Shown one piece after another: positions 2 through 50,350 of a stretch of 61,777 nt of DNA. The stretch comes from Candidatus Omnitrophota bacterium (GTDB lineage Bacteria > Omnitrophota > Gorgyraeia > Gygaellales > Profunditerraquicolaceae), in the NCBI GenBank assembly GCA_043797735.1, contig JAZDPH010000035.1, positions 1 to 61,777 on the forward strand. The letters run 5' to 3'. The position numbers and the translations under genes were made by a program. Position 1 is the stretch's first letter. Every line of letters begins with the position of its first letter. The notes under the pieces were generated by a model. That model was not told the DNA's origin and did not search any database. It saw nothing but the letters and a program-made list of their open reading frames with translations.

Positions 2-712
2 CACTATTCCTCCCACGCCCATGAGCAGGTGCTTAAGGAGCTAGTGCCGGATGTATATAGCCGGGCGGTTGAAGAGGAGAAGCTTGACGTTATAGAGATG
101 CCTAAGATTTCAGAGGTCAGGCTTGACAGGAACAGGCTTTCTTTTAAGGCGGTTGTTTCAATAAGCCCGGAAGTAATGATAAAAGATTACAAAGGGATAA
201 AAGTAGATTATCAGAAGATAGCTGTTTCGGCCGATGAGCTAAAGCGCAATTTAGAATCATTAAAGGAATCCAGAAAGATTGATGCCTTAGATGATAGTTT
301 TGCCAGGAGCCTGTGTTATCCGGCGCTTGGCGATTTAGAAAAGGCCGTTGAAAGGCAGCTCTTTGTTCAGAAGGAGAATAGCCTTCGTCAGAGCGCGGAG
401 AATCAGATTGTCGAAAGCCTGTTAAAGCAGGTAAATTTCAATCTGCCCCAATCAATGATAGAGCGGCAGCTTCAGGAGCTGCTCAGGCAGGCCAAGCTTG
501 ACCTTGCCATGAAGGGGGTGGATCGCGAAAAGATTGATGAACAGGAAAAAGAGATGTCCAAAGAGCTTGAGCCGGAGGCAAGAAGGCAGGTGAAGGTTTA
601 TCTGGTATTATCCGAAATCGCAAAAAAAGAAAACATCCCCCTTGATAACAATATGCCGCGTAAGGTAATGGAGTTATTATTAAAAGAAGCAAACTGGGAG
701 GTTAAGGATTAG
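2..712 (+). CDS. tig: trigger factor, C-terminal part (5' end outside window)
   Basis: The frame is open from the window edge. The translation resembles the PPIase-distal and C-terminal arm region of trigger factor. It lies directly upstream of clpP, the conserved tig-clpP order. Confidence 0.85.
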   Translation, partial: HYSSHAHEQVLKELVPDVYSRAVEEEKLDVIEMPKISEVRLDRNRLSFKAVVSISPEVMIKDYKGIKVDYQKIAVSADELKRNLESLKESRKIDALDDSFARSLCYPALGDLEKAVERQLFVQKENSLRQSAENQIVESLLKQVNFNLPQSMIERQLQELLRQAKLDLAMKGVDREKIDEQEKEMSKELEPEARRQVKVYLVLSEIAKKENIPLDNNMPRKVMELLLKEANWEVKD

Positions 713-767
713 GATAAGGTTAAGTTTAAAAATCACAACCTCAACCTCAACCTTATCCTAATCCTAA
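698..767. repeat. word-repeat hairpin (GGTTAAGG/CCTTAACC-type words)
   Basis: AGGATTAGGATAAGGTT (705-721) pairs perfectly with AACCTTATCCTAATCCT (749-765). It overlaps the tig stop codon. Confidence 0.8.
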
Positions 768-777
768 TTCTTTTAAA

Positions 778-1392
778 ATGGAGGTGGTTATGGACGTAAG
801 AATGCAGACATTGGTTCCCATGGTTATTGAGCAGACGGCAAAGGGCTATGAGCGCGCATACGATATTTATTCGCGCCTCTTGAAAGAGCGCATTGTATTT
901 ATCGGTACGGCTATTGAAGATTACGTGGCAAACCTGGCGATTGCGCAGATGTTGTTTTTGCAGATGGAAGACGTAAATAAAGATATTAACGTTTATATTA
1001 ATTCCCCCGGCGGCTCAGTCAGCGCGGGGCTGGCGATATATGATACGATGCAGTTTGTAAAATGCGACGTCGCCACCTACTGTGTAGGGCAGGCATCCAG
1101 TATGGGGGCGCTGCTTTTGTGCGCCGGCGCTAAAGGCAAACGGCATTCCCTGCCTAACTCCCGGGTTATGATTCATCAGCCCTGGGGCGGCATTCAGGGG
1201 GCGGCAGAGGATATTTCCCGCCATGCCCAGGAAATTTTAAAGATGCGCGATAGGATAAACGAAATACTTGCAAAACATACCAGGCAGCCGCTGGAAAAAA
1301 TACAGAAGGACACCGACAGGGATTATTTTATGTCGGCAGCAGAGGCTAAGGATTACGGTTTAATTGACGAAGTAATAGTACCGCAGGCCTAG
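778..1392 (+). CDS. clpP: ATP-dependent Clp protease proteolytic subunit
   Basis: Typical ClpP sequence ([44 protein letters not shown]). GGAGGTGG lies at 781-788, so the true start may be 790 or 802. Confidence 0.95.
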
Positions 1393-1402
1393 GAGGAGTA
1401 AA

Positions 1403-2539
1403 ATGAAAAAGAGTTATTTATTGACGCCGGGGCCTACCCCTCTTCCCCCGCAGGTCTTAGCTGCGCTGGCCCGGCCGATCATGCATCACCGTACCCCGCA
1501 ATTCCAGGCAATAATAAAAGAGGCGCAAGGCGGGCTAAAGTATTTGTTTCAGACTGCAGGCGATGTTTTTATGCTGGCCTCTTCCGGGACCGGTGCGATG
1601 GAGGCGGCAGTGGTCAACCTGCTTTCGCCGGCGGATACGGCAATTATAGTCCAGGGCGGCAAATTTGGCGAAAGATGGACGGAGCTCTGCAGGGCATACG
1701 GGATAAATGCCGAGATAATTGACGTGGAATGGGGTAAGGCTGTCTCTGCGCAGGAGATTGCAAAAAGGCTAAAGGCAAATCCCAGGATAAAAGTAGTTTT
1801 TACCACGCTCTGCGAAACCTCCACGGGCGTGGATAACGATATTGAGTCTATAGCAGGAGCAGTAAAGGCTACAGACGCGGTATTAGTCGTAGATGCCATC
1901 AGCGGCCTGGGGGCAGTTGATTTAAAAACCGATGCCTGGGGCTGCGATGTGGTGGTTTCAGGTTCGCAGAAAGGGCTGATGCTCCCTCCGGGACTGGGCT
2001 TTATCTCTGTTAGCCCCAAGGCCTGGAAATTGGCGGAAAATGCAAAATGTCCGAGGTATTATTTTGACCTGAATAAAGCCAAAAAGGCCCTAAGTAAAAC
2101 CGATACGCCCTTTACGCCGGCCATAACTTTAATCATCGCCTTGATCGAGTCGTTAAAGATGCTTAAAGAAGATGGGCTGGAAAATGTATTCAGCCGGCAC
2201 AAAAAGATGGCGGATGCTGCCCGGGCAGCAATGAAGGGCCTGGGGTTAGAGTTATTTGCGTCTTCCGCTGCTTCGGATGCGGTAACTGCCGTAAAAGTTC
2301 CCGGGGCAATAGACGGAGAAAAGCTGGTCAAAACCATGCGCGACGCTTACAGTATTACTATTGCCGGCGGGCAGGCAGAACTAAAAGGAAAGATTTTCAG
2401 GATTGCCCATATGGGCTATATCGGGGAGTTTGATATTATTCTGTGTATATCCTGCCTGGAAAAAGTATTGCATCAGGCGGGGCATAAGTTTGAGTTGGGT
2501 GCGGGGGTAAGGGCGGCGGAAGAAGTATTCTTGAAATAA
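1403..2539 (+). CDS. class-V pyridoxal-phosphate aminotransferase (serine-glyoxylate / phosphoserine aminotransferase type)
   Basis: 378 aa with LTPGPTP start, an SGTGAMEAA-type motif and SGSQKGL (PLP lysine). RBS AGGAGG is present. It lies immediately upstream of serA, which suggests a SerC-like role. Confidence 0.8.
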   Translation: MKKSYLLTPGPTPLPPQVLAALARPIMHHRTPQFQAIIKEAQGGLKYLFQTAGDVFMLASSGTGAMEAAVVNLLSPADTAIIVQGGKFGERWTELCRAYGINAEIIDVEWGKAVSAQEIAKRLKANPRIKVVFTTLCETSTGVDNDIESIAGAVKATDAVLVVDAISGLGAVDLKTDAWGCDVVVSGSQKGLMLPPGLGFISVSPKAWKLAENAKCPRYYFDLNKAKKALSKTDTPFTPAITLIIALIESLKMLKEDGLENVFSRHKKMADAARAAMKGLGLELFASSAASDAVTAVKVPGAIDGEKLVKTMRDAYSITIAGGQAELKGKIFRIAHMGYIGEFDIILCISCLEKVLHQAGHKFELGAGVRAAEEVFLK

Positions 2540-2549
2540 GGGAGTAAAA

Positions 2550-5875: not shown

Positions 5876-5876
5876 A

Positions 5877-5985
5877 CCCAAATTCCAAGATACAATAACC
5901 CTGCCTGCGGGGCTCGCAATGACGAATGTTTGGTAATTGGTTATTGAATATTGGAATTTGTTTGTATCTTGTGTCTTGGCCATTG
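5877..5985. repeat. cluster of inverted short words
   Basis: CCAAATTCC/GGAATTTGG-like, CAAGATACAA/TTGTATCTTG and AATAACC/GGTTATT pairs. A CTCGCAATGAC half-element lies in the middle. Confidence 0.6.
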
Positions 5986-6045
5986 GTTATTTCGTGTAAA
6001 AAACATGATTTATTTCGAATTTAACATTAAATTAAGGGGTGTTAC

Positions 6046-7284: not shown

Positions 7285-7298
7285 TAGGTTATAAAAAT

Positions 7299-8643
<1,345 letters not shown>

Positions 8644-8660
8644 GTGAGGTCTAAACTTAT

Positions 8661-8802
8661 GGAGCGAAGCGAACATAAGTTTATGACCGAACTTATCCCG
8701 CCGAATGTGCTAAAATTGTGGAACAGAATTTTAGCACATCCTATGAGGCGGGATAGAGGATACAGCTGGAGCGAAGCGAACATAAGTTTATGACCGAACT
8801 TA
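8661..8802 (+). repeat. 107-bp tandem module: conserved 35-nt box plus a variable hairpin, two copies
   Basis: GGAGCGAAGCGAACATAAGTTTATGACCGAACTTA occurs at 8661-8695 and 8768-8802. Each copy is followed by a different hairpin (ATCCCGCC...GGCGGGAT; CCCAGC...GCTGGG). Confidence 0.8.
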
Positions 8803-8930: not shown

Positions 8931-9572
8931 ATGAAGTTTAGAATAATAAAGGCCGTTTTAATAATTTTTGTAACTTTATCCATGGCAGGCTGCACTTTCA
9001 TTTTCCAGAAAGGCAGGCGTTCCGATATGGACAAGATAAAGGAACTATCCCGCCAGGTTGATGAATTAAGCCAGGCTAAAAAGATTTTGGAGGAAAGATT
9101 CGGGCAGGAGATTGCCGATAGGCAGGTAAAGCTAGAGATGCAGGATAAAGGCTTGGTCATTACTGTAGTGGGAGACCTCTTGTTTGACTCGGGAAAGGCT
9201 ACTATAAGGCACGAGGCTTATCCGGTGATGGATAAGGTCGGCCTTTTCCTGAAGGAGAATGTACCGAATTTAAATGTCGCGATAGAGGGCCATACGGACA
9301 ATCAGCCGATTCAACATTCGGGATGGAAGTCTAACTGGGAGCTGTCCACTGCGCGCGCCTTAAGCGTGCTGCATTATTTGGTCAACGAGGAGAATATTTT
9401 ACCCGAACGCCTTTCGGCAATCGGATACGGAGAGTACCGTCCGGTCGCCTCTAACGACACCAGGGAGGGCACGCAGTTAAACCGCAGGGTTGAAATCGTC
9501 ATCATGCCTAAACTTGCAAAGGTTAAGGGGAAAGAAGAGATATTGCTTGAGCCGCAGGAGAACCTAAAATAA
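8931..9572 (+). CDS. OmpA/MotB-family peptidoglycan-associated lipoprotein
   Basis: Lipobox LSMAGC, a coiled segment, and an OmpA_C-like domain (GHTDN..., NWELSTARA, NRRVEIV). RBS AAAGGAGG. Confidence 0.85.
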   Translation: MKFRIIKAVLIIFVTLSMAGCTFIFQKGRRSDMDKIKELSRQVDELSQAKKILEERFGQEIADRQVKLEMQDKGLVITVVGDLLFDSGKATIRHEAYPVMDKVGLFLKENVPNLNVAIEGHTDNQPIQHSGWKSNWELSTARALSVLHYLVNEENILPERLSAIGYGEYRPVASNDTREGTQLNRRVEIVIMPKLAKVKGKEEILLEPQENLK

Positions 9573-9629
9573 GTGAGGCCTAGGCCTCACTTATCCTGAG
9601 TCCGCCGAAGGCGGACGAAGGATCTCAAT
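9571..9629 (+). repeat. composite repeat: AAGTG...CACTT hairpin plus ATCCTGAGTCCGCC...GGCGGACGAAGGATCTCAAT hairpin (copy 1)
   Basis: The same architecture and a near-identical second module occur at 10116-10206. Confidence 0.8.
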
Positions 9630-9648
9630 GTAAAGAAGGGCTAAACTT

Positions 9649-10041: not shown

Positions 10042-10086
10042 TGATATGAGGCTATAAGGCATGAGGAAGAAGGGTTTGCCTAAAAA

Positions 10087-10108
10087 GGGGATATTTATCC
10101 CCTTTTTT
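10087..10108 (+). terminator. classical Rho-independent terminator
   Basis: GGGGAT-ATTT-ATCCCC followed by TTTTTT, downstream of the coiled-coil gene. Confidence 0.8.
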
Positions 10109-10115
10109 ATTAAAT

Positions 10116-10206
10116 AAGTGCGGTCATACCCGCCATAGTTCTTTGGCGGGTATGACCGCACTTATCCTGAGTCCGCCAAAAATCATGGCGGACGAAGGAT
10201 CTCAAT
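10116..10206 (+). repeat. composite repeat (copy 2)
   Basis: AAGTGCGGTCATACCCGCC...GGCGGGTATGACCGCACTT followed by ATCCTGAGTCCGCC-loop-GGCGGACGAAGGATCTCAAT. Confidence 0.8.
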
Positions 10207-10952: not shown

Positions 10953-10990
10953 TCAGCCGAGAATTATTGAAACTGAAAGAAAACATTTCT

Positions 10991-11086
10991 TTAACGCAGA
11001 TACACGCAGGCCTAACGCAGATAATCGCAGATATTCCAACGGGAATCTGCGTACATCTGCGTTAGATTTGCGAAAATCCGCGTTAA
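10991..11086. repeat. word-repeat hairpin (ACGCAGAT/ATCTGCGT words)
   Basis: The left arm, 4 copies of ACGCAG-like words (10991-11037), faces the right arm of CTGCGT/TTGCG words (11041-11086). Confidence 0.8.
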
Positions 11087-11123
11087 ATAAAAAGTATTTC
11101 ATTATTTTACGTAAGTTAGAATT

Positions 11124-12704: not shown

Positions 12705-12787
12705 ACGCGGAACCACGCTGAACTGTACGCAGAACCACGCACTACAGTTTCCGCGTAGTTCAGCGTAGAATTCCGCGTAGTTCAGCG
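12705..12787. repeat. word-repeat hairpin (ACGCGGAA, CGCTGAACT words)
   Basis: The arms AACGCGGAACCACGCTGAACTGTACGCAGAACCACGC and TTCCGCGTAGTTCAGCGTAGAATTCCGCGTAGTTCAGCG fill the whole GH57-uppS spacer. Confidence 0.8.
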
Positions 12788-14299: not shown

Positions 14300-15478
14300 A
14301 TGGTCAACATCGCTGTATTAGGCTCGACCGGCTCCATTGGGATAAATACCCTGCAGGTAATAAGGAATTTTCCCGATAAATTCCGCGCCGTCGCCTTAAG
14401 CGCTAACTCCAATAGCGGGCTTCTGGAAAAACAGATCAGGGAATTCCGTCCGGCCTTTGCCTGCTTCGGAAATGCCGAGGGCGCCCGCAGGCTTAAAGCA
14501 AGCGGCATTGGCAAGAGGGTCAGGATCTTTGCCGCAGAGGCAGGCCTTGCGGAGATTGTTTCCGAAAAAAAAATAGACAAGGTAGTTATTGCCATAAGCG
14601 GTTCTGCCGCATTATTTCCTTTATTGAAGGCGATAGAATGCGGTAAAGAGATCGCCTTGGCCAATAAGGAATCTTTAGTCATCGCCGGCTCAATAATAAT
14701 GGCTTTGGCGCGCAAAAATAAAATAAAGATTATCCCTATTGACAGCGAGCAGTCGGCAATCTGGCAGTGCCTGGAGGCAGAAAGCGCCGCCAACATTAGG
14801 AATATTTATCTTACTGCTTCCGGCGGCCCTTTTAGAAATACCGCCCTTAGCAGGTTAAGGAATGTATCAGTAAGAGAGGTCCTTAAACACCCTAAATGGA
14901 AGATGGGGCGCAAAATCAGCGTAGACTCGGCTACCATGATGAATAAGGGCCTGGAGCTCCTGGAGGCGATGTCTTTATTCGGGGTATCAAGCGAAAAGAT
15001 AAAGATCCTGATACACCCGGAAGCGATAATTCATTCCATGGTTGAGTTCATAGACGGGGCAATCCTTGCGCAGTTATCGGCTACCGATATGCGCATACCA
15101 ATTCAATATGCCCTTTCTTACCCTGCCAGGCTGGCTAATGATGCTGCCGCCTTGAGGGTGGATTTCTGCAAATTAAAAGGCCTGCATTTCCAGAAGCCTA
15201 ATCTTATGAAGTTTCCTTGTTTAAGATTAGCGTATCTGGCGGCCTCGGAATCAGGGACGCTTCCGGCGGTACTAAATGCCGCCAATGAGATAGCAGTGAA
15301 TGAATTCTTAAGGGGCGGGTTAAAATTTGTTTACATATATAATGTAATTGAAAAGGTAATTGCGCGGCACCGTAATAGGCGCAATCCTAAGCTAGAGGAT
15401 ATCCTTAATGCGGATAGTTGGGCCCGGCGTCAGGCGCATGAGATTATCAAGATGTTTTACACAGATTCACACAGATGA
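14300..15478 (+). CDS. dxr: 1-deoxy-D-xylulose 5-phosphate reductoisomerase
   Basis: LGSTGSIG, LANKESLV, IDSEQSAI and TASGGPFR motifs. The last codons overlap the left arm of a word-repeat hairpin. Confidence 0.95.
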   Translation: MVNIAVLGSTGSIGINTLQVIRNFPDKFRAVALSANSNSGLLEKQIREFRPAFACFGNAEGARRLKASGIGKRVRIFAAEAGLAEIVSEKKIDKVVIAISGSAALFPLLKAIECGKEIALANKESLVIAGSIIMALARKNKIKIIPIDSEQSAIWQCLEAESAANIRNIYLTASGGPFRNTALSRLRNVSVREVLKHPKWKMGRKISVDSATMMNKGLELLEAMSLFGVSSEKIKILIHPEAIIHSMVEFIDGAILAQLSATDMRIPIQYALSYPARLANDAAALRVDFCKLKGLHFQKPNLMKFPCLRLAYLAASESGTLPAVLNAANEIAVNEFLRGGLKFVYIYNVIEKVIARHRNRRNPKLEDILNADSWARRQAHEIIKMFYTDSHR

Positions 15479-15550
15479 AATAACCGGATGCACACAGATC
15501 TTGGCCTGATATATCTGTGTGTATCCTAAAGGTATCTGTGTGTATCTGTG
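15457..15550. repeat. word-repeat hairpin (CACAGAT/ATCTGTG words)
   Basis: TTACACAGATTCACACAGATG...GCACACAGATC faces ATATCTGTGTGTATC...GGTATCTGTGTGTATCTGTG. The left arm encodes the last residues of Dxr. Confidence 0.8.
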
Positions 15551-15579
15551 AAATGAAAGGTTTTTCAGGGGTCTAAAAT

Positions 15580-19398: not shown

Positions 19399-19495
19399 TA
19401 AGGGATAGTAAGGGGTAGGATGGGGCAGTAAGGGGGGCTTTAAAAAATTCCCCTACTACCCCCTACTATCCCTTCCTATCCCATACTACCCCTTA
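19399..19495. repeat. word-repeat hairpin (TAGTAAGGGG/CCCCTACTA words) between rimP and nusA
   Basis: A G-rich arm (19399-19437) faces a C-rich arm (19450-19495). Confidence 0.8.
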
Positions 19496-20782: not shown

Positions 20783-20796
20783 AAAAATTTATTTAT

Positions 20797-20864
20797 GATT
20801 ACACAGATTTTTAAAAAGATTCCACAGATTAAAACATAATTATTTTCTAACTATCTGTGTAATC
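20797..20864. repeat. hairpin with CACAGAT/ATCTGTG words between nusA and infB
   Basis: GATTACACAGAT (20797-20808) pairs with ATCTGTGTAATC (20853-20864). Confidence 0.7.
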
Positions 20865-20910
20865 AACCATAATTAGTTGATTAGGCAGATAAATTATACG
20901 AGGGATTATT

Positions 20911-22998
20911 ATGGTTAAAACAAAAAAAGCTAAACCCGCAGTTAAGAAAAAGGCAGCGGTAAAAAAACCGGTTTCGAAAAAGGCGGTTTCCAAAACAACC
21001 AAGCCCAAACCGGCGCCAAAACCAAAGGTTAAGGCTGAGGTTAAGGTTAAGAAAACGGCTGTATTCAGTCCAAGGCCGCTGAAGCCGAGAAAGCAAAGCC
21101 ATCTCTTAAAAGAAGTTCCGGAGAAGAAGCCTGAAGCAGCCGTTACGGTAACAAAGCCGGTTATGCCCGTTGCGCCGCCGGTAGCGAAAGAGGCGGTACA
21201 GGAGAAGCCTGCCGCAGTTGTTATCCAGCCGCAGCTGAATGAACTGGAACTTGATTTGCCGATTACCGTTAAGGATTTGTCGGTTAAATTACAGGAGAAG
21301 TCTTCCGTTGTTATAAAGGCCCTGATGGGCATGGGGAAGATGATCGGGCTAAACCAGTCTCTTGATGAGGAGACGGTAGTAACAATCTGCCGGAAATTTA
21401 ACTTTAGCTTTAAAGAGGCGCCGGGAAGGGAAAAATTGGCCCTGGGGGCACACGAAGAAAAGGATGACCCCCGTTTTTTAAAACCAAGGGCGCCGATAGT
21501 AACATTTATGGGCCACGTTGACCACGGCAAGACCCTGTTGATGGACCAGATCAGAAAAACAAATGTCGTTGATTCCGAGCATGGCGGCATTACCCAGCAT
21601 ATCGGGGCATACCGGGTGAAATTGAGCCACGGAGAGATTACCTTTCTGGATACGCCGGGCCATGAGGCTTTTACTGCTATGCGTGCCCGCGGAGCAGGGG
21701 TAACCGACATAGTGGTTTTAGTAGTGGCTGCCGATGACGGGATTATGCCCCAGACCGAAGAGGCGATAGACCATGCGCGAGCAGCAGGCGTGCCGATTAT
21801 TGTCGCCATAAATAAAATTGATAAACCGCAGGCCGATATTGACAGAGTCAAGAAGCAGTTGGCCAAATTTGACCTGAGCCCCGAAGACTGGGGCGGCAAG
21901 ACCATTACCGTCTGTGTTTCCGCAAAGACTGCCGTAGGAATCGAAAATTTACTTGAGATGCTTCTTCTTGAGGCGCATATGCTGGAGTTAAAGTCTAATC
22001 CCAACAGAATTGCCCGCGGGGTGGTAATCGAAGCAAAGATAACCAAGGGCAGGGGCCCGGTATCAACATTATTGGTGCAGAATGGCACCTTGCGCCTGAA
22101 TGACAATGTTATCGCCGGGGATTTCCACGGCAAGGTCAGGGCGATGTTTGATGACCGGGGCCATTCTATCGTCTCTGCGGGGCCGGGAGTTCCGGTTGAG
22201 GTCCTTGGTATATCCGGGGTGCCTCAGGCCGGAGAGAGTTTTTTTGTTGTGGAGGATGAGAAGACAGCTAAAGGCCTGGCAGAAGGGCGCCAGGAGCAAA
22301 AAAAGCAAAGCCAGATGAAGTCGGCAAAGAGGATTAGCCTTGAGGATTTACATGCCCAGATACAGGCGGGCAAGATCAAGGAGCTGAGCCTGATCATTAA
22401 GTCTGATGTGCAGGGTTCTCTTGAGGCGATCAAGGATACCTTAAACAAACTCAATGTCTCGGAGATAAAATTAAATATCATGCATGCCGGAGTGGGGAAT
22501 ATCAATAACTCCGATGTTGTCCTGGCTATGGCAGCCAATGCGTTGATATTAGGGTTTAATATTGTGGCCGATGATTTAGCCAAGCAGACTGCGTTGAAGG
22601 AAGGCATTGAGATAAAGATATATAATATTATTTATGAGCTTGCCAATGATATAAAGGCGGCGGTAGAAGGGATGCTCGAGCCGAAGATTAAAAGAGTCTT
22701 TCTGGGTAAGGCAGAGGTAAGGAAGGTCTTTGACCTTACCAAAGCAGGCAGGGTCGCGGGCTGTTATATTACCAAAGGGAAAGTCAGCCGCCAAGGCATG
22801 GTTACTTTGGTTCGGGGCGGCCAGCCGGTTTTTGAAGGCAAAATCTCAGCGCTAAAACGTTTTAAAGATGACGTCCGGGAAGTCGCCGAAGGTTATGAAT
22901 GCGGCATTTCTTTAGACGGATTTAGCGACCTGCAACAAGGAGATATAATCGAGGCCTACGAGATAGAGAAGATAGCGCGTAAGTTAGAAAATCCGTAA
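20911..22998 (+). CDS. infB: translation initiation factor IF-2
   Basis: Lys/Pro-rich N-terminus and G domain motifs GHVDHGKT, DTPGH, NKID. Confidence 0.95.
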   Translation: MVKTKKAKPAVKKKAAVKKPVSKKAVSKTTKPKPAPKPKVKAEVKVKKTAVFSPRPLKPRKQSHLLKEVPEKKPEAAVTVTKPVMPVAPPVAKEAVQEKPAAVVIQPQLNELELDLPITVKDLSVKLQEKSSVVIKALMGMGKMIGLNQSLDEETVVTICRKFNFSFKEAPGREKLALGAHEEKDDPRFLKPRAPIVTFMGHVDHGKTLLMDQIRKTNVVDSEHGGITQHIGAYRVKLSHGEITFLDTPGHEAFTAMRARGAGVTDIVVLVVAADDGIMPQTEEAIDHARAAGVPIIVAINKIDKPQADIDRVKKQLAKFDLSPEDWGGKTITVCVSAKTAVGIENLLEMLLLEAHMLELKSNPNRIARGVVIEAKITKGRGPVSTLLVQNGTLRLNDNVIAGDFHGKVRAMFDDRGHSIVSAGPGVPVEVLGISGVPQAGESFFVVEDEKTAKGLAEGRQEQKKQSQMKSAKRISLEDLHAQIQAGKIKELSLIIKSDVQGSLEAIKDTLNKLNVSEIKLNIMHAGVGNINNSDVVLAMAANALILGFNIVADDLAKQTALKEGIEIKIYNIIYELANDIKAAVEGMLEPKIKRVFLGKAEVRKVFDLTKAGRVAGCYITKGKVSRQGMVTLVRGGQPVFEGKISALKRFKDDVREVAEGYECGISLDGFSDLQQGDIIEAYEIEKIARKLENP

Positions 22999-23072
22999 AT
23001 GGTAAATCGTAAATGGTAAATCGTAAATGGTAATTATTTAAAATTACGAATTACGATTTACGAATTACGAAT
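22993..23072. repeat. word-repeat hairpin (CGTAAAT/ATTTACG 7-mers)
   Basis: CCGTAAATGGTAAATCGTAAATGGTAAATCGTAAATGGTAA faces AAATTACGAATTACGATTTACGAATTACGAA. It overlaps the infB stop. Confidence 0.85.
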
Positions 23073-26833: not shown

Positions 26834-26856
26834 AATTGCAGGATATCAGGTTATCG

Positions 26857-26925
26857 GGTTATCCGGATGTGGATATCGGTGTATCGGGATATCAGGAAAT
26901 TATTTTTCCGGATACCCAGATATCC
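26857..26925 (+). repeat. left copy of 69-nt inverted repeat (GGWTATCN 8-mer words)
   Basis: The reverse complement of 30085-30153 matches at 67/69 positions, by manual alignment. Confidence 0.85.
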
Positions 26926-26935
26926 AGTTATATTT

Positions 26936-30038: not shown

Positions 30039-30084
30039 CATTAGAAGGATATCCGGATATCGGGGTATCCGGTAGTGGGCATCA

Positions 30085-30153
30085 GGATATCTGGTTATCC
30101 GGAAAAATAATTTCCTGATATCCTGATACACCGATATCCACATCCGGATAACC
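30085..30153 (-). repeat. right copy of 69-nt inverted repeat
   Basis: See 26857-26925. Weaker similarity extends roughly 15-20 nt on each outer side. Confidence 0.85.
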
Positions 30154-30178
30154 TGATGCCCTGATATCCCTAAACGAT

Positions 30179-31168: not shown

Positions 31169-31173
31169 GCAGT

Positions 31174-32456
<1,283 letters not shown>

Positions 32457-32457: not shown

Positions 32458-32512
32458 AGGATAAGGTTGAGGATGAGGTTGAGTAAAAATACTTAACCTT
32501 AACCTTAACCTC
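32458..32512. repeat. word-repeat hairpin (GGTTGAGG/CCTTAACC words)
   Basis: AGGATAAGGTTGAGGATGAGGTTGAG faces CTTAACCTTAACCTTAACCTCC. Confidence 0.8.
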
Positions 32513-36870: not shown

Positions 36871-39800
36871 ATGGGCCTGCCGCAGATACCCGGGGCAAAG
36901 AAGAAGGGCGTAGTATTATTTGATGTTTCGGATGGCCTGGAAAAATTAGACGAGTATCTTATAAATGATACCGTCTGCATTGACGGACCGGCAGAACTCG
37001 CCATCCGCCTGGCCGGGGAGCTGAATCATAAATACAAAGTCGCCTCCAAAGTCGTAAACAGGGACAAATTTGAAAGAGAACTGCCCGCCTATATTGAAGT
37101 AATCAACAGCCCTATTCAGGAGATCGTCGGGGAAGGAAGGGCGGAGGCGGTTAAGTTTAAAAACGGCAAAGTTGTCGGGGTAAGTTTAGTCGTATTAATA
37201 AAAGGAGATAATATGTCAGAGCTATTAGTTCAGATGGGGACCAAGGGTGCGGCGGCGGTACTGGAGTTGACGCGCCAGTCGCTAAACGATGCGATTGCCG
37301 CCGGGGGCAGGGATAAACCGGTTGCTTTTCCCGAGACAAATTATTATCTGCCCCTGATAAATGTCTTATTGAATATTGAGGTCAGGAACCTGGGGGATTG
37401 CCTTCTTGCCTTAGAGCAGGCAGAGGCATTAAACAGGAATGAGGCGGCCAAGAGCGGCTTGATTATAAACAGCCTCGGCGGCATCCTGAATAAAGGCATC
37501 GCCACTTTAATCTGCGAGGAGCTCCTGGCGGTTCTGGCGGTTTCAAAAAAAGAGCACCCTAAGGCCGGTTTGGGTTTTGTGCCGGATAAGATACTGCGTT
37601 CGCTGGGATTACAGCTGGTTGACGGCAGGATCTCCGGCATCGCCGTAATCTTAGGGCCGGCTAAAGACGATGATTCCGCCGTAGAATTAATCAGGAATTT
37701 CCAGTCCAAGGGCATTGTCAGCCTCTTAGCCGGCAGCGCTTCAGGAAAAACTTTTGCCAGCCAGCTTGAGAATAAAAAAATAGAATTAGGGCTGGATAAT
37801 TATATTGTTGCCCTGGGGGAGGATTATTTATCGGCGATTTATGCGGTTAATTTTGCGGTAAGAGCGCCCTTAATTTACGGCGGATGCAAGCCCGGGCAGT
37901 GGGAGGCTGCAGCCGGTTATGTCCGCAATCGCGTGCCTGCTTTTGTTCTGCTTTTGGGGTATGTCGATGAGGTTATCGTTGCCACCGGCCTGGGTGTATT
38001 GGCTTTCGGCCTGCCGATTATAACCGACTTGGATGTGCCGCAGCTGCCTAAGATAGACACTACGCTTTATGAGGCGCTGGTTACCGAGAAGGACTATAAA
38101 AAAATTCCCTCAAAGTGTATTCTGGCGCGGGGGATTAAGGTGAAATTGGCAGAGGTGCCTGTGCCTGTGCCGTATGCCTCGGCCTTTGAAGGGGAGCGGG
38201 TGAAGAAAGACCAGCTGCAGGTTGAATTCGGAGGAAAGGCAAGCCTTGCCTTTGAATTTCTCTCATCCGCAAAGGAAGAGCAGGTTGATGACGGCAGGTT
38301 TGAGCTAATCGGCCCGGACATTGACCAGTTAGAGCCGGACAAGAAGTCTCTGCCCTTGGCAATTACAGTTGGAGTCTTTGGCCGCAAAATGCAGAAGGAT
38401 TTTGAGCCGATACTGGAACGCCAGATTCATCGTTTCATGAATTACGCCTGCGGGGTAATGCACGTGGGCCAGCGCGATATGAACTGGATACGCATCAGCC
38501 GTGATGCCTTTAATAAGGGTTTCAGGTTAAAGCATGTCGGGGTAATCCTGCATGCGATGCTGCATCAGGAATACAGCGCCATCGTAGATAAGGTTCAGGT
38601 TAAGGTTTACACAAAGCAGGATGAGGTAGAGAAACTATTGCCTGCCGCCAAAAAGGTGTTTGATGAGCGCGACGAACGCATCAGCGGGATGACCGATGAA
38701 AGTGTAAAGGATTTTTATTCGTGCCTGCTCTGCCAGTCCTTTGCCCCGAATCACGTTTGTATCGTAACCCCCGAGCGGCTGGGCCTCTGCGGGGCATATT
38801 CCTGGCTTGATGCCAAGGCGGCGTATGAGATTACCCCCACCGGGCCGAATCAGCCTATTACCAAAGGCAGCGTCTTGGACGAGCGGCTGGGCCAGTGGCA
38901 GAGCGTAAATGAGTTTATCTATCAGAAATCAAACAAGAGCATCGATAAGACCAGCATGTATTCGCTTATGGATTCCCCGCAATCGTCGTGCGTAGTGGGA
39001 AACACCCGAGTTATTATTGATAATGAATTAAAGCCCATAGGGGAATTTATAGATAATAATCGCGGAGGTGAAGAATATGCGAAGTCGGGAGTTTTTACTT
39101 TAAAGGAAAGTAAAGCAACTTCGGAGAGAATAGTGGCAATGCAAAGATTTGAACTGCCTGAGAAAAAAGATTTAGTTACTATAAGAACGAAAACCGGAAC
39201 GGAACTTATCCTTACTGGTGACCATCGGATTGCTACGGATAGGCCTGAGGGCCTAAATTGGATTCCGGCTTGCGAACTCAAAACGGGCGATAGAATAATC
39301 TCTTTAAAGAGGTTGGACATAAAAGAGGAAGTGCCGGATTTGCGCAGTTTAATCTCGGATGATTTGCCTCTAAAAGATAAAGTCCTTATGGAGACATCGG
39401 TAAATAAAGCCATAATAAATAAGGAATTATTTTATTTGATGGGTTTAATTGCCTCTGATGGCTCGGTTTTTAAGAGAGGAAACCGCGAATATGGCATATA
39501 TTTTGTGAATACAGGGAAAGAATTGATTAGCGAATATGAAAATTTATACAAAACTATCTTTCCTGAGAAAAATTTGCATGTCGGCATAAAAAAACCGAGG
39601 AAAGACGCTTTCATCAAAGGAAGAAGAATCCACTCCAAAAAGGATTGTTATGTATGTTATTCCAATAATTCTATTTTTGGAATTCTGCTTGAGTGCTTCG
39701 GAATAATCCCAAAGAAAAAAAGCAGGTGCCTTAAGAACATGGTAACTTTGCCGCGTGGATATATCGCGGGCTTTTTAACCGGTCTTTTTGACGGAGACGG

Positions 39801-40791
39801 AAGCATCAGACTGAGAAAATACGATAATAAATGGGATGTCGCAGAGGGCTACCTTTGCTGCCAGACTCAAGAACAAGGCTATTACCTTCAGTTATTATTA
39901 AAAAGGTTCGGCATAGTAAGCAATTTAAAGAAGTCCAATTCTATCTATAAAATTGAATTACACGGAAATAACATCTATGAATTTTGCAAGATTATAACGC
40001 CCGTCCATAGAGAAAAGAAAAAAATAACCGAGAAGATAAGGTTATTATATAAAGAGCCAAAGATAGACAAAACACAGGTTAATATCTTGCCCTTTTTTGT
40101 AGGAAAGAGGTTAGCCGACTTGCCCGAAAGTAAAAGTATGTTAAGCTCAAGCACTAACTTCTATTATAAGACTTTTCGCTCAAGGCCAACAGCGGATAAT
40201 CTACGTAAGGTTATCAATAATTCCGGCTCAAATGAGGCCAACGCATTGAGAGTATTTTTGGATAGCGATTTCTATTTGGATATTATTGATAAAGTCAAAA
40301 AAAATACAAAAAGGGAGAAATACGTTTATAACCTTACTTTGTCCGATACGCATTGTTATTTTGCTAACCAGGTGCTTATAAAGAATTGTGGTTGTTTTGA
40401 GTGTATCATTGCTATCATCCCCGAGGCAAACGGGGTGATGCTGGTGCACCGTGATTATTCCGGGATGACCCCCTGCGGGATGAGCTTTACCACCTTAGCC
40501 GGTTCGGTGGGCGGCGGGGCGCAGACCCCGGGATTTTTAGGCATAGGCAAACTTTATATATTAAGCAATAAGTTTATTTCCGCAGAAGGCGGCTTAAAAC
40601 GGGTAGTCTGGATGCCCAAAGAGTTAAAGGAAATATTGGGAGATAAGTTAAAAAAACGCGCAGAGGAGCTGGGCCTGCCGGATTTAATTGATAAAATTGC
40701 CGACGAAACAAAGGCACAAACCTCGGAAGAGCTCCAGAGTTATTTAGCCAAGGTAAAACATCCTGCCCTGGCGATGGAGCCGATGTTGTAA
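36871..40791 (+). CDS. acsB: acetyl-CoA synthase (CODH/ACS A-cluster subunit) precursor, interrupted by an intein, with a 114-aa in-frame N-terminal extension
   Basis: From Met115 (ATG 37213, behind AAAGGAGA) the translation appears colinear with bacterial AcsB as I recall it. It includes the [4Fe-4S] Cys motif CLLCQSFAPNHVCIVTPERLGLCG and the CGCFE Ni motif, and ends ...HPALAMEPML. Exteins from Met115 total 726 aa. Confidence 0.9.
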   Translation: MGLPQIPGAKKKGVVLFDVSDGLEKLDEYLINDTVCIDGPAELAIRLAGELNHKYKVASKVVNRDKFERELPAYIEVINSPIQEIVGEGRAEAVKFKNGKVVGVSLVVLIKGDNMSELLVQMGTKGAAAVLELTRQSLNDAIAAGGRDKPVAFPETNYYLPLINVLLNIEVRNLGDCLLALEQAEALNRNEAAKSGLIINSLGGILNKGIATLICEELLAVLAVSKKEHPKAGLGFVPDKILRSLGLQLVDGRISGIAVILGPAKDDDSAVELIRNFQSKGIVSLLAGSASGKTFASQLENKKIELGLDNYIVALGEDYLSAIYAVNFAVRAPLIYGGCKPGQWEAAAGYVRNRVPAFVLLLGYVDEVIVATGLGVLAFGLPIITDLDVPQLPKIDTTLYEALVTEKDYKKIPSKCILARGIKVKLAEVPVPVPYASAFEGERVKKDQLQVEFGGKASLAFEFLSSAKEEQVDDGRFELIGPDIDQLEPDKKSLPLAITVGVFGRKMQKDFEPILERQIHRFMNYACGVMHVGQRDMNWIRISRDAFNKGFRLKHVGVILHAMLHQEYSAIVDKVQVKVYTKQDEVEKLLPAAKKVFDERDERISGMTDESVKDFYSCLLCQSFAPNHVCIVTPERLGLCGAYSWLDAKAAYEITPTGPNQPITKGSVLDERLGQWQSVNEFIYQKSNKSIDKTSMYSLMDSPQSSCVVGNTRVIIDNELKPIGEFIDNNRGGEEYAKSGVFTLKESKATSERIVAMQRFELPEKKDLVTIRTKTGTELILTGDHRIATDRPEGLNWIPACELKTGDRIISLKRLDIKEEVPDLRSLISDDLPLKDKVLMETSVNKAIINKELFYLMGLIASDGSVFKRGNREYGIYFVNTGKELISEYENLYKTIFPEKNLHVGIKKPRKDAFIKGRRIHSKKDCYVCYSNNSIFGILLECFGIIPKKKSRCLKNMVTLPRGYIAGFLTGLFDGDGSIRLRKYDNKWDVAEGYLCCQTQEQGYYLQLLLKRFGIVSNLKKSNSIYKIELHGNNIYEFCKIITPVHREKKKITEKIRLLYKEPKIDKTQVNILPFFVGKRLADLPESKSMLSSSTNFYYKTFRSRPTADNLRKVINNSGSNEANALRVFLDSDFYLDIIDKVKKNTKREKYVYNLTLSDTHCYFANQVLIKNCGCFECIIAIIPEANGVMLVHRDYSGMTPCGMSFTTLAGSVGGGAQTPGFLGIGKLYILSNKFISAEGGLKRVVWMPKELKEILGDKLKKRAEELGLPDLIDKIADETKAQTSEELQSYLAKVKHPALAMEPML
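38989..40386 (+). mobile_element. intein (466 aa) with LAGLIDADG homing-endonuclease domain, inside acsB
   Basis: Starts with Cys (CVVGNTRVIID) and has block B LTGDH. Two LAGLIDADG motifs are present (LMGLIASDGSV near 39433-39470; FLTGLFDGDGSI near 39762-39806). It ends ...VLIKN followed by +1 Cys. The flanks join to LMDSPQSS-CGCFE. The segment is visibly more AT-rich than the flanking acsB sequence. Confidence 0.85.
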
Positions 40792-41371: not shown

Positions 41372-41491
41372 GAGATTGCTGAAAAATTCGATTTTCTCGT
41401 CATTGCGAGCGACCGAAGGGAGCGAAGCAATCTCAAAAAATAGATTGCTTCGGCACTTCGTGCCTCGCAATGACAATATTTCAGCAATCTC
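41372..41491. repeat. composite hairpin of the GTCATTGCGAG / CTCGCAATGAC family
   Basis: Outer stem GAGATTGCTGAAA/TTTCAGCAATCTC. Boxes GTCATTGCGAGCGA, GAAGCAATCTC, AGATTGCTTCG and CTCGCAATGAC. Confidence 0.8.
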
Positions 41492-41502
41492 AAATATTTT
41501 AC

Positions 41503-42302: not shown

Positions 42303-42363
42303 AACGCCACGGAGTTTAAAGCCGGAGTTCCCTACCAAAAAGAATTTCCATGCAATCTAATTA

Positions 42364-46842: not shown

Positions 46843-46849
46843 GGAGGAG

Positions 46850-48109: not shown

Positions 48110-48162
48110 GTAAGGGGTAGTAGGGGAAATAAAAAATAAAACAGATAGAAAGGAAGGAAAAA

Positions 48163-48369
48163 ATGAAAGATAAGATTCATCCCAATTACAAGGGAAGCAC
48201 TATCGTCTGCGCCTGCGGGGAGACCATTCGCACCCGCTCCACCAAACCAAGCATCCGGGTGGAGATCTGCTCTAAATGCCATCCCTTTTTTACCGGCAAG
48301 CATAAACTGGTTGATTCCGCGGGAAGAGTGGAGAAGTTTAGAAGAAGATACGGCAAGAAAAAAGAGTAA
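48163..48369 (+). CDS. rpmE: 50S ribosomal protein L31
   Basis: MKDKIHP..., CxC...[10 protein letters not shown] Zn-ribbon pattern. Confidence 0.92.
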
Positions 48370-48375
48370 ACCGGC

Positions 48376-49440
48376 ATGTTTGAAGAGTTAGAAAAGTTAG
48401 AGCCGCGCTATAAGGAGCTGGAGGGGTTTTTGGCCTCCTATGAGACTATTCACGATAAGCAGCTCTATAATAAATACGCCAAGGAGCTTTCAAACTTAAG
48501 GGAGCCGCTGGCATTATTGCGCGAATATAAAAGGCTCTGCAGGGAGATAGAGGAAACAAAAGCGGTGCTTGAGGATAAGGGTGACAAGCAGATGCTGGAG
48601 TTAGCCGAAACAGAGGCCCGCCAGTTAGAGGAAAAGAAAAAAACGGTACAGGAAAGGCTAGAAAACCTCCTTAAGGGCGAAGACAAGGATGCCGGCCGGG
48701 ATTGTATTGTGGAGATTCGCCCCGGTACCGGCGGTATGGAGGCAGGCCTGTTTGCCGCCTCACTTTACCGGATGTATACAAAGTATGCCGCAAGACATGA
48801 CTGGGGCGTTGAGACGATGTCCTCTAGCGCCACCGAATTAGGCGGGATAAAGGAAGTGGTATTCAGCGTTAGGGGCCGGGACGCCTACGGGAGGCTTAAA
48901 TTTGAGAGCGGTGTTCATCGGGTGCAGCGCGTGCCTGCTACCGAAGCCCAGGGCAGGATTCATACCTCTACTGCCACGGTGGCGGTATTGGCTGAGCCGC
49001 AGGAGGTGGAGCTGGTTATTGAGCCGAAGGACTTAAGAATTGATACTTACAGGTCTTCCGGGCCGGGCGGCCAGCATATGCAGAAGACGGATTCGGCGGT
49101 AAGGATTACTCACGTCCCCAGCGGAGTGGTAGTTACCTGTCAGGACGAGCGTTCGCAGGGAAAAAATAAGGCTAAGGCAATGCGTATCCTGCGTGCGCGT
49201 ATCCTGGATATTAAGGAGCAGAACGAGGCCAAAAAAATCGCCCGGGAACGTAAATCACAGGTCGGCACAGGCGAACGCAGCGAAAAAATACGCACTTATA
49301 ACTTTCCGGACCGGCGGGTAACCGATCACCGCATAAATTTTACCTCCCATCAATTAGAGGCGGTGCTGGAGGGGGATTTGGATGAGATTTCAGACGCGTT
49401 GATAAAGGCCTCTGAAGGAAAAAAAGAGGCAGGGCAATGA
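48376..49440 (+). CDS. prfA: peptide chain release factor 1
   Basis: PAT tripeptide (RVPATE) and SGPGGQ motif. Confidence 0.95.
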   Translation: MFEELEKLEPRYKELEGFLASYETIHDKQLYNKYAKELSNLREPLALLREYKRLCREIEETKAVLEDKGDKQMLELAETEARQLEEKKKTVQERLENLLKGEDKDAGRDCIVEIRPGTGGMEAGLFAASLYRMYTKYAARHDWGVETMSSSATELGGIKEVVFSVRGRDAYGRLKFESGVHRVQRVPATEAQGRIHTSTATVAVLAEPQEVELVIEPKDLRIDTYRSSGPGGQHMQKTDSAVRITHVPSGVVVTCQDERSQGKNKAKAMRILRARILDIKEQNEAKKIARERKSQVGTGERSEKIRTYNFPDRRVTDHRINFTSHQLEAVLEGDLDEISDALIKASEGKKEAGQ

Positions 49441-50282
49441 CCGAGAGCGAATTACTATTTTGCGATGTCCTCAAATGCGGCCGGTTGTCTTTATACCTTA
49501 ATAAAAAGTCCCTGCTAAACAGAGATGAATGCGCAAGGATTTCTTTAGCTTTAAAGAGGAGGGCGCGGGGCGAACCCCTCCAGTATATTTTAGGAAAGAG
49601 CGAATTTATGGGGTTGACTTTTAAGGTTGCCCCTGAGGTGTTGATACCGCGGCCGGAGACGGAGATTCTTGTTGAGACGGCATTGAGGGTGGCCGGCAGC
49701 CGCGCATCTGTGCAGGCCCGTAAGTTAAAGATTCTAGATATAGGAACGGGCTCAGGGTGTGTGGCAGTGTCTTTAGCGAAATTCCTGCCCGAGGCAGAAA
49801 TTTACGCCAGCGATATCTCGGCAGAGGCTTTGGAAGTGGCGAAAGAGAACGCGTCATTGAATAATGTAAATATAGAATTTATCCAGAGCGATTTATTTTC
49901 CAGCCGTGGACTGTCGACTGTGCCTGCCTGCCGGACAGGCAGGGACTATGGACTAATTGTCAGTAATCCACCATATATTCCCAGCGCGGAGATTGCTAAA
50001 CTTCAGCCGGAAATACAATATGAACCCAGGGCCGCCTTAGACGGGGGCGCCGACGGGGCGTCGTTCTTTCGGCGCATTATCAGGGGTTCCCTGGATAATT
50101 TATGCGCCGGGGGTTTTCTTATAATGGAGATGGGTTTTAATCAGGCGCCGGAGGTAGGAAAGATTTTCCAAAAATACCCCGATTTTGAAATAATAGAAGT
50201 GGCCAAGGATTATAGCGGCATTGAGAGGGTAATTGTTGCTAAGAAAGTTATAAATGGAGGACATCTTTCTTGCACGAATTAG
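49437..50282 (+). CDS. prmC: release-factor glutamine N5-methyltransferase
   Basis: PRPETE, DIGTGSG and NPPY motifs. Carries an in-frame palindromic element just upstream of NPPY. The 3' end overlaps a word-repeat hairpin. Confidence 0.9.
   Translation: MTESELLFCDVLKCGRLSLYLNKKSLLNRDECARISLALKRRARGEPLQYILGKSEFMGLTFKVAPEVLIPRPETEILVETALRVAGSRASVQARKLKILDIGTGSGCVAVSLAKFLPEAEIYASDISAEALEVAKENASLNNVNIEFIQSDLFSSRGLSTVPACRTGRDYGLIVSNPPYIPSAEIAKLQPEIQYEPRAALDGGADGASFFRRIIRGSLDNLCAGGFLIMEMGFNQAPEVGKIFQKYPDFEIIEVAKDYSGIERVIVAKKVINGGHLSCTN
49907..49955 (+). repeat. palindromic element embedded in frame in prmC
   Basis: GTGGACTGTCGACTGTG-CCTGCCTG-CCGGA-CAGGCAGG-GACTATGGACTA. Confidence 0.8.
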
Positions 50283-50350
50283 CACGAATAAAATTCGAAT
50301 TGTCACAAATAGATTTGTGTAAATTCGATAAAAATTCGTGATAATTTGTG
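50271..50350. repeat. word-repeat hairpin (CACGAAT/ATTCGTG and CACAAAT/ATTTGTG words)
   Basis: Overlaps the prmC stop and fills the prmC-murA spacer. Confidence 0.75.

Follow-up and report, generated by a model that had tools for sequence, protein, structure and literature searches.

Small non-coding inverted repeats of the kind known as bacterial miniature inverted-repeat transposable elements (MITEs; Correia elements and BOX/RUP are examples) are polymorphic for presence and absence, insert between genes and into operons, and can give rise to stems in mRNA. In REPINs, the hairpin-forming doublets of repetitive extragenic palindromic (REP) sequences, conserved inverted ends enclose a variable spacer and undergo compensatory changes (Bertels & Rainey 2011, PMC3116915). 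Paired arrays of short words have been described in Geobacter metallireducens, for which the main text of Aklujkar et al. (2009, PMC2700814) gives 24, 21 and 8 site pairs, each of 3–5 tandem words of 7–9 nt (GTTGCTYN, TCTCCGTS[Y] and MTYCTGA; ‘putative global regulator binding sites’, classes 1–3), paired on opposite strands at variable distance, with one array between proB and proA and none in the sister species; for G. bemidjiensis, multicopy sequences are reported from 12% of intergenic regions (PMC2996986). Here, we analyze a stretch of 61,777 nucleotides from a Candidatus Omnitrophota bacterium (contig JAZDPH010000035.1 of assembly GCA_043797735.1), in which long hairpins built from tandem words occupy the spaces between genes. 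This stretch, hereafter the window, is the 62 kb over which the source genome was covered, and copy counts per family apply to it only. We lean, without strong conviction, towards reading the hairpins as dispersed, intergenic, REPIN/MITE-like palindromic repeat elements with tandem-word arms, each arm complementing the other.

How real are these structures? Hairpins were sought with a gapped inverted-repeat search, with shuffled sequence as control, because sliding-window minimum free energy does not discriminate: GC-rich coding windows fold equally well, and this detector was dropped. The shuffled maximum was a score of 11.5, whereas the real window yielded 24 hairpins at or above it, 20 of which fell into the intergenic ~6% of the window (two of the other four overlap dubious starts of open reading frames, ORFs). 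All 13 loci that a sequence-only reading of this DNA had singled out are present, give or take a few bases, and 12 of these 13 spacers hold imperfect palindromes of 55–125 nt, with AT-rich stems of 23–59 nt broken by mismatches. Folded as RNA, 12 of the 13 beat every one of 200 dinucleotide shuffles (z-scores from -3.8 to -10.3). The weak member is a composite hairpin of CCAAATT/AATTTGG words at 5877–5985, between a UshA-like and a homocitrate-synthase-like gene, which is marginal as RNA (z = -2.1), reaches -4.0 as single-stranded DNA, shows weak periodicity and has a loop that includes a piece of a repeat of the CTCGCAATGAC family. Among the eight loci folded as single-stranded DNA, six gave z-scores between -5.2 and -7.4 and the hairpin at 19399 gave -2.3. 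The tandem-word construction of the arms was borne out as well: at 10 of the 13 loci, both arms were more periodic than 2000 arm shuffles (p ≤ 0.03), with words of 6–10 nt, whereas periodicity was weak at 20797, 50271 and 5877, with their unevenly spaced words, and absent from six ordinary window hairpins that served as controls; an independent run of Tandem Repeats Finder returned periods of 6/12, 7/14, 8/16/30 and 10. Altogether, about 12 of the roughly 25 window spacers of at least 59 nt contain a word hairpin. Two further points made from the sequence stand, namely that at tig, dxr, infB and prmC an arm extends over the stop codon and that the hairpins give rise to spurious ORFs; they also lengthen the C-termini predicted at these four genes and produce false gene starts (e.g. 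at 26867). The longest-ORF starts of the LmbE-like gene (26867) and of a gene for a tetratricopeptide repeat (TPR) protein (41376) fall within hairpins and are probably wrong, and the match of the LmbE-like protein to its family begins only at residue 62.

The hairpins are insertions into ancestrally tight junctions. In the closest relative (L001; loci of other genomes carry L numbers, and their ORF calls are crude), which shares 81.5% nucleotide identity with the window over 7.6 kb, the rimP–nusA, nusA–infB and infB–trpS spacers measure 13, 0 and 6 nt, as against 165, 128 and 79 nt in the window, with the hairpin accounting for essentially all of the added length. At rimP–nusA this is 19399–19495 (words TAGTAAGGGG / CCCCTACTA, period 10, z = -4.9), absent from L001; at nusA–infB it is 20796–20865 (spaced TGATTACACAGATT words, z = -4.2), absent from L001 and L209; and at infB–trpS it is 22989–23072 ((C/G)GTAAAT / A(A/T)TTACG, period 7/14, z = -5.3), absent from L001, with unequal arms of 47 and 31 nt, the 5′ one overlapping the infB stop codon. 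The three empty sites seen in L001/L209 constitute presence/absence polymorphism at orthologous sites, as is characteristic of MITEs. More broadly, rimP, nusA and infB abut or overlap one another in L001 and in most relatives, and the infB–trpS spacer is at most 20 nt long in 53 of 81 Omnitrophota loci; in the 19 where it reaches 60 nt or more, at least 13 bear word hairpins, of at least eight word families, while none was found at 17 infB loci from outside the Omnitrophota. Since the tight junctions are ancestral, the hairpins represent repeated, lineage-specific gains. A scan of metagenome contigs returned, as closest NusA, a protein of 85% identity on a contig from the same organism as L001. 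The direct repeats that flank the three insertions (TTAA, AAATCC/ATATCC and TTATTTATG/ATTATTATG) are suggestive; they are imperfect and, at 4 to 9 nt, of unequal length. The window elements thus share with MITEs the inverted-repeat form, the presence/absence between relatives and the insertion between genes and into operons, but differ from them in an interior that is merely a short, copy-specific loop and in internally repetitive arms; a target-site duplication of fixed length is not evident from these three sites, and no cognate insertion sequence with matching ends came to light, no search aimed at one having been made.

From the impression of different words at different loci, the sequence-only reading had concluded that architecture is conserved while sequence is not, and had proposed local generation or selection for structure alone. 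The premise is half true: the 12 hairpins group into about 6–7 families, with AGGWT words represented three times, CACAGAT/CGCAGAT/CACGAAT words five times, GGATATC words twice, and TAAGGGG and GTAAAT words making up the rest. All 12 lie between genes and families recur in 2–5 copies within 50 kb, so that they qualify as extragenic multicopy palindromes in the sense of REPs and REPINs. The conclusion is largely unsupported. The largest word hairpin, at 30047–30169 between the SpoIID-like gene and queA (59-nt arms of GGATATCN octamers, period 8 with p = 0.0005, z = -5.8 as RNA and -5.3 as DNA), has a truncated copy in inverted orientation at 26841–26932, downstream of lepB (z = -3.8). The two are about 93% identical, asymmetric loop included, a far better match than that of arm to arm within either hairpin. 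Such a copy is hard to reconcile with local genesis, by which we mean slippage and template switching in place, any stable stem being useful or harmless and the likeness of words being coincidence or convergence.

The same holds for the relatives that we found elsewhere. A comparison of the window hairpins to 348 hairpins of other genomes, with shuffled queries as null, gave significant matches for seven: 19399, 22989, 50266, 20796, 15457, 10986 and 5877. The hairpin at 19399 resembles L244 5038-5153 (score 33, null maximum 14.5); that at 22989 resembles elements in L264/L265, where it is nested in a loop (42.5 versus 18.5), and has further relatives in L260, L005 and L054; that at 50266–50357, between prmC and murA, with CACGAAT/CACAAAT words, a z-score of -8.1 and a 5′ arm overlapping the prmC stop codon, resembles L277 1767-1838 (27.5 versus 17.5). 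The element at 20796 matches L028 1471-1549, located there at rimP–nusA, along with many loci in other phyla, 5877 matches L144 (L249 being another relative), and both 15457 and 10986 match the CACAGAT family. For 19399/L244, 22989/L264-L265, 50266/L277 and 20796/L028 the partners occupy non-orthologous junctions, and in genomes with homologous elements at other sites the flanking genes are merely 60–75% identical. Homologues that agree down to irregular details, at unrelated sites and next to genes so diverged, are not what generation in place would leave behind.

Two word families reach much further. From 20796 and L028 we derived a CACAGAT pattern (TTACACAGATT, 15–45 nt, ATCTGTGTAAT), for which about two chance matches were expected in the genome collection; at least 120 loci carry it (all counts from such collection-wide scans being lower bounds), in Acidobacteriota, Chloroflexota, Bacteroidota, Alpha- and Deltaproteobacteria, Elusimicrobiota, Spirochaetota, Brocadiia and Omnitrophota. 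Nearly all matches have additional CACAGAT/CGCAGAT/CACGGAT words in their flanks, which the pattern does not demand, several genomes hold multiple copies, and three cultured isolates are among the carriers. In the window, this family includes 15457–15553 between dxr and rseP ((T/C)ACACAGAT / ATCTGTGTG, z = -8.1), whose 5′ arm encodes the final seven dxr codons plus the stop codon, and, as a member of the superfamily, 10986–11091 upstream of the gene for a GH57 branching enzyme ((T/A)ACGCAGAT / ATCTGCGT, z = -10.3, -7.4 as DNA), the best matches of which are CACAGAT/CGCAGAT hairpins from other phyla. In L082, L135, L141, L177 and L182, and likewise in L097, L126, L158 and L195, CACAGAT words make up the core of larger palindromes, whose outer arms, in these Deltaproteobacteria-type genomes, differ and are conserved (GTTGAAAAA..CAACAG.., or TTCTGAAAAAGTCC..).

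The second family, F1, consists of (N)AGGWT hexamers facing AWCCT(N), and its pattern (AAGGWTNAGGWTNAGG, 8–38 nt, CCTNAWCCTNAWCCT) occurs at no fewer than 118 loci, in Nitrospirota, Desulfobacterota, Aminicenantes, Bacteroidota, Nitrospinota, Omnitrophota and others, including Chryseobacterium piscicola DSM 21068. Of its three window members, 698–767 between tig and clpP (z = -6.1 as RNA and -5.7 as DNA; period 6, p = 0.0005 in both arms) fits the pattern and supplies, with its 5′ arm, the last four codons and the stop codon of tig; 7299–7367 (z = -4.9, period 6/12) lies between the homocitrate-synthase-like gene and purA and ends 7 nt before the purA start codon; and 32458–32512 (z = -7.7, -6.4 as DNA), which again fits the pattern, fills the tgt–trmD spacer up to 3 nt before the trmD start codon. 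The F1 hexamer is also found as (AAGGTT)x4.5 within the N-terminal coding part of infB, at 21025–21051 of the window and at 3101-3128 of L001, which may be a coincidence, or possibly a seed or sink for the F1 word.

Identical 11–16-mers in more than 100 genomes of unrelated phyla make convergence on words, and with it local genesis, still harder to defend. The sequence-only reading had itself conceded that a few ordinary repeat families with many identical copies would speak against it; families with many copies are indeed what we find, so that this outcome applies in spirit, the copies being degenerate rather than identical. Taken together, the inverted copy in the window, the relatives at non-orthologous junctions and two families in more than 100 genomes each speak against the notion of a conserved architecture without conserved sequence. 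Could the hairpins be artefacts of assembly or amplification, such as chimeric inverted joins in metagenome-assembled genomes? Most carriers are indeed genomes of this type, but we consider an artefact scarcely conceivable, given that the same families occur in the cultured isolates Asticcacaulis biprosthecium C19, Bacteroides cellulosilyticus DSM 14838, Flavobacterium aestuarii and C. piscicola DSM 21068, that orthologous copies are found in independent assemblies (L264/L265 and L011/L247), and that the reading frames flanking the hairpins are intact. Compared by eye with Nextera/Tn5 mosaic ends, a conceivable contaminant, the sequence differs.

With regard to vehicles of dispersal, a BLAST search of plasmids with CACAGAT and F1 consensus elements gave no real match, and viral contigs contained seven matches to the CACAGAT pattern versus one to a scrambled-word control; hence, the elements are not obviously plasmid-borne or phage-borne. 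Curated Rfam models, at gathering score, had no match in the window, and 18 carrier loci gave only tRNAs and one SAM-II riboswitch. We found no paper that contains CACAGAT or AAGGTT array strings in this context or deals with Omnitrophota hairpins. Cyanobacterial short tandemly repeated repetitive (STRR) sequences are tandem heptamer repeats. Intergenic TAACTGA heptamers form direct repeats just upstream of start codons (MacGregor 2015, PMC4679880). With STRR and TAACTGA repeats the hairpins share tandem 7-nt words, the intergenic location, the high copy number and a patchy distribution across phyla that suggests horizontal spread; those, however, are mainly direct arrays with no obligatory complementary partner, whereas the hairpins adjoin the upstream stop codon.

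A further property of the elements is their polarity, which is fixed: on either strand, the purine-rich arm comes 5′. Because a hairpin reads alike on both strands, this is an intrinsic property of the element. Against the purine-first F1 loci enumerated above, the reverse pattern, with the pyrimidine arm first, has only five, two of which are junctions between tandem forward elements, leaving at least 118 against 3. At matched stringency, forward matches number 41 among the matches listed. The bias is 14:1 or more. The purine-rich arm also leads in 47 of 60 other scorable word hairpins, compared to 86:79 in ordinary hairpins. Selection for a stable stem alone cannot account for a fixed polarity, and local genesis fares no better, as both polarities fold equally well.

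Arms and loops, moreover, evolve differently. At rimP–nusA in L264 (1452-1594) and L265 (244-386), the 22989-like element lies within the loop of a larger hairpin of TAGTAAC words; L236 and L260 have the same outer arms with other loops inside. Across these four orthologous elements the arms are ~95% identical and the loops unalignable, while the adjacent rimP codons are ~60–65% identical. Arm sequence, beyond mere pairing, is thus conserved above neighbouring codons, which, with the polarity, is at odds with both proposals of the sequence-only reading, local generation and selection for structure alone. One Terriglobia genome has four copies with common arms and unrelated loops. Where arms do change, they change in concert: the words of 50266 read CACGAAT/ATTCGTG and those of L277 CACGGAT/ATCCGTG, in every word of both arms, such that 5 of 20 pairs are altered on both sides, by concerted G-C to A-T changes, and none is broken. 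The sequence-only reading had asked whether words change under a persisting hairpin; they can, and as inverted doublets with conserved ends, a variable spacer, a hairpin and compensatory change the elements answer to the description of a REPIN.

Slippage, too, was rightly suspected, and it is real within the arms. In the 5′ arm of 22989, which has outgrown its partner, 3.1 tandem copies of a 14-nt unit agree at 96% identity. Half-arrays without partner exist in L223 and in the window, where GTAAGGGGTAGTAGGGG, a half-array with the word of the 19399 family, stands on the plus strand at 48110–48126 directly after the rho stop codon without a complementary arm (read directly; arm similarity 16–17 to 19399). 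A small ORF 3′ of this half-array resembles rpmE (L31) and is missing from the 100-aa ORF list. Independent expansion of arms, orphan half-arrays, the many different words found at the same infB–trpS junction across genomes and the likeness of the GTAA-type word after infB to the local stop-codon region are what local genesis would lead one to expect; set against the dispersal, polarity and arm conservation described above, we nevertheless hold it to be very unlikely as an account of the elements as a whole.

How, then, do the word hairpins compare to REP/REPIN systems, which are mobilized by REP-associated tyrosine transposases (RAYTs)? Both are short, imperfect palindromes restricted to extragenic space. 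As in REPINs, two conserved inverted ends flank a less conserved spacer and can form a long hairpin in single-stranded DNA or mRNA; several families coexist per genome, in both orientations and in nested or higher-order arrangements, often directly after stop codons between co-directional genes. In contrast, the arms here are tandem arrays of 6–10-nt words in varying copy number, and there is no general GTAG head, most words lacking GTAG, so that the family consensus of REPs is not found. According to published descriptions, a REPIN family belongs to one lineage and is passed on vertically, whereas the F1 and CACAGAT families are common to many phyla, and no RAYT gene is present among the window genes.

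The Geobacter paired sites are alike in architecture, in being intergenic and in being multicopy, and the window hairpins conform to them in these respects; the words are others, and the main text on the Geobacter sites does not treat hairpin folding, polarity, insertion status or the distribution of words across phyla. The paired-array architecture is therefore already in the Geobacter literature, whereas neither a set of words common to several phyla nor a fixed polarity seems to have been described. Aklujkar et al. put forward the hypothesis that the paired sites bind global regulators, possibly IHF/HU (main text of PMC2700814), and the arrays of the window could by the same token be double-stranded DNA sites for abundant chromosomal proteins, with hairpin potential as a by-product of inverted site pairs. 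We regard this as improbable. It does have the merit of a published precedent for the same architecture, and arm sequence is kept while spacing and loop vary, as paired protein sites do. The word periods of 6–8 bp may be likened to those of cooperative operators such as Fur hexamers, omega heptads and MetJ octamers, and an RNA-strand G:U signature is lacking (see below). However, the elements directly follow stop codons, in spacers that separate co-directional genes and within operons, and do not occupy promoter regions, with just 24 of 275 intergenic word hairpins between divergent genes, and this positional evidence weighs against promoter-type regulation by a global regulator of the Geobacter type. 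Likewise, the closest relative lacks all three elements of an essential operon, arms change between family members in a pair-preserving manner with no pair broken, and many families in one genome would need many regulators.

The position of the elements raises the question of whether they act in the transcript. The word hairpins are not canonical intrinsic terminators, as the sequence-only reading had maintained: most lack a U-tract (a T-rich tail follows only 3 of the 12), and two, 19399 and 20796, are located inside the essential rimP-nusA-infB operon. A consensus terminator scan flagged none of the 12, although the same genome has ordinary terminators with GC stem and U-tract at 10082–10107 and 56093–56130. 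The likeness ends with a stem-loop downstream of a stop codon; stems here are 23–59 nt long, AT-rich and mismatched, 9 of 12 are without U-tract, and the nearest relative lacks them. Word hairpins do lie closer to the preceding gene (134 vs 57, p = 2e-5): the median gap is 6 nt on the side of its stop codon and 22 nt on that of the following start codon, an asymmetry absent from ordinary hairpins. By spacer type, the 275 intergenic ones divide into 216 tandem, 35 convergent and 24 divergent. Stop codons in the 5′ arm are enriched among non-CACAGAT words (33 vs 17) and not in the CACAGAT family.

These data could be taken to indicate host RNA elements, that is, vertically inherited and slippage-diversified stem-loops for mRNA stabilization, RNase III processing or termination without U-tract. 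E. coli REPs have roles of this kind in stabilizing and processing mRNA. The stems are very stable as RNA, they begin shortly after, and significantly nearer to, the upstream stop codon, compensatory changes preserve their pairs, and Rho is encoded in the window, so that factor-dependent termination is available and the hairpins need not terminate. Yet no excess of G:U on the sense strand was seen in 216 word hairpins between co-directional genes (208 G:U-type vs 205 A:C-type mismatches), a test of uncertain power, as a non-word control was equally unbiased, and summed fold energies in the window are equal on the plus and minus strands (-416 and -414 kcal/mol). Further, the elements are absent at all three compared junctions in the nearest relative and from most Omnitrophota, the same elements recur at unrelated junctions and in both orientations, about 9% of the intergenic ones separate divergent genes, and the sharing of words across phyla would be left without explanation. 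On this evidence, a host RNA function as the reason for the hairpins strikes us as unlikely.

We therefore return to REPIN/MITE-like repeat elements, which are the simplest account because they explain together why the hairpins are inserted, fall into families, occur in both orientations and keep a fixed polarity, and why arms are conserved and compensated while loops vary freely. The elements would be copied and pasted via a hairpin-forming intermediate, their words being read by a trans-acting protein, candidates for which would be RAYT-like and HUH-type enzymes as well as other transposases or recombinases. Replication slippage and arm-to-arm templated correction may subsequently remodel each copy; word variants are homogenized across copies and compensated between arms. 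Persistence at operon junctions might be explained if a self-pairing insert rejoins the upstream stop and the downstream start codon, a distance that in 8 of 11 cases is at most about 22 nt once the stem closes. Having the purine-rich arm first might ensure that a C-rich, Rho-loading tract is never exposed before its partner has been transcribed. In mRNA, by analogy to E. coli REPs, the stems would at most block 3′ exonucleases or serve in processing, and would not act as terminators. Going one step further, many phyla might share a small, polarity-fixed vocabulary, e.g. 5′-(NAGGTT)n-loop-(AACCTN)n-3′ and 5′-(TTACACAGA)n-loop-(TCTGTGTAA)n-3′, that invades stop-start junctions, those of essential operons included, and is read, through its words, by widely conserved machinery; this would amount to a new class of non-autonomous mobile DNA, or to a universal signal in single-stranded nucleic acid, distinct from REP/RAYT and from insertion sequence-derived MITEs, a possibility that we raise only tentatively.

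Several observations weigh against repeat elements of REPIN/MITE-like type. Neither a transposase nor a RAYT gene is found among the window genes, and clustering of the neighbouring proteins at 238 carrier loci linked no gene family consistently to the hairpins, the two largest clusters (29 and 21 loci) being without further annotation. Copies within one genome share arms and not loops, unlike in whole-element copy-paste, and imperfect flanking repeats of 4–9 nt do not fit one classical transposase. About 6–7 families in 50 kb are more than usual for REP/RAYT systems. CACAGAT words are not always element termini, as some genomes have them inside larger, different palindromes; in some Deltaproteobacteria-type genomes they behave as a module, not as element ends. 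Finally, the GTAA-type word at infB–trpS is similar to the ...CGTAA around the stop codon there, so that this one family may have been seeded locally.

A number of resemblances made out by eye are leads at most. They concern multi-site ends of the Tn7/Mu type (in some genomes, larger palindromes enclose the CACAGAT words), the DnaA box TTATCCACA in relation to an outer word, ATCCACAGA, the IHF consensus, CsrA GGA motifs, TRAP-like NAG repeats and DNA uptake sequences, as well as complementarity of F1 to the anti-Shine-Dalgarno tail of 16S rRNA, which is plausible for F1 alone.

If the REPIN/MITE-like reading is true, about half of the sizeable spacers here are repeat elements and not regulatory DNA made by the host, wedged into junctions that relatives keep at 0–15 nt. 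A long spacer would then not signal a transcription-unit boundary, which matters for operon prediction; spacer inflation in candidate phyla would affect comparative genomics, and annotation would be misled by spurious ORFs. The same words in the same polarity, in more than 100 genomes each and from Omnitrophota to Bacteroidota, Nitrospirota, Acidobacteriota and Alphaproteobacteria, point to a recognizer or a mode of horizontal spread undescribed in the searchable literature. As cultured carriers of the word families exist, the question is open to direct testing.

All window genes are on the plus strand, and their IF2 shares 78% identity with that of the metagenome-assembled genome BS750m-G77, the next best matches all being Omnitrophota. 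With a slash for each listed hairpin, the gene order is tig / clpP ... UshA-like / homocitrate-synthase-like / purA ... DUF4912 / GH57 / uppS-cdsA-dxr / rseP-ispG-proS-rimP / nusA, continuing nusA / infB / trpS-scpA-ruvB-lepB / LmbE-like-queH-SpoIID / queA, then tgt / trmD, and prfA-prmC / murA. The hairpin between GH57 and uppS, at 12705–12787, takes up the whole spacer from stop to start codon (ACGC(G/A)GAACC / GGTTC..GCGT, period 10, z = -5.2).

Besides the word hairpins, the window contains repeats of other kinds. A second palindromic family, GTCATTGCGAG...CTCGCAATGAC, without tandem words, is represented at 31172–31314 in the queA-tgt spacer, at 41399–41474 over the dubious start of the TPR-protein ORF, and as the fragment at ~5905–5925 in the loop of the 5877 hairpin. 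A third, of ATAAGTG(A/C)GG..CCxCACTTAT palindromes (9569–9640, 10114–10177 and 8641–8695), flanks OmpA/MotB-like and hypothetical genes, and two of its copies are followed by the same CCTGAGTCCGCC(GAAGGCGGAC) tail. At 54419–54505 and 55652–55733, near-identical blocks of ~85 nt with a good promoter-like TTGACG-N17-TAAAAT are found upstream of two small genes that lack annotation, as if a promoter and its leader had been duplicated. The gene for the beta subunit of acetyl-CoA synthase/carbon monoxide dehydrogenase (36871–40791; product of 1306 amino acids) is split by an intein with a LAGLIDADG homing-endonuclease domain. Repeat and stem are combined in another manner after trpC, at 53989–54054, where two perfect tandem copies of a 17-nt sequence (TTCTTCGTCAAGAATCC x2) lead into a GC-rich hairpin of 18 bp without mismatch.

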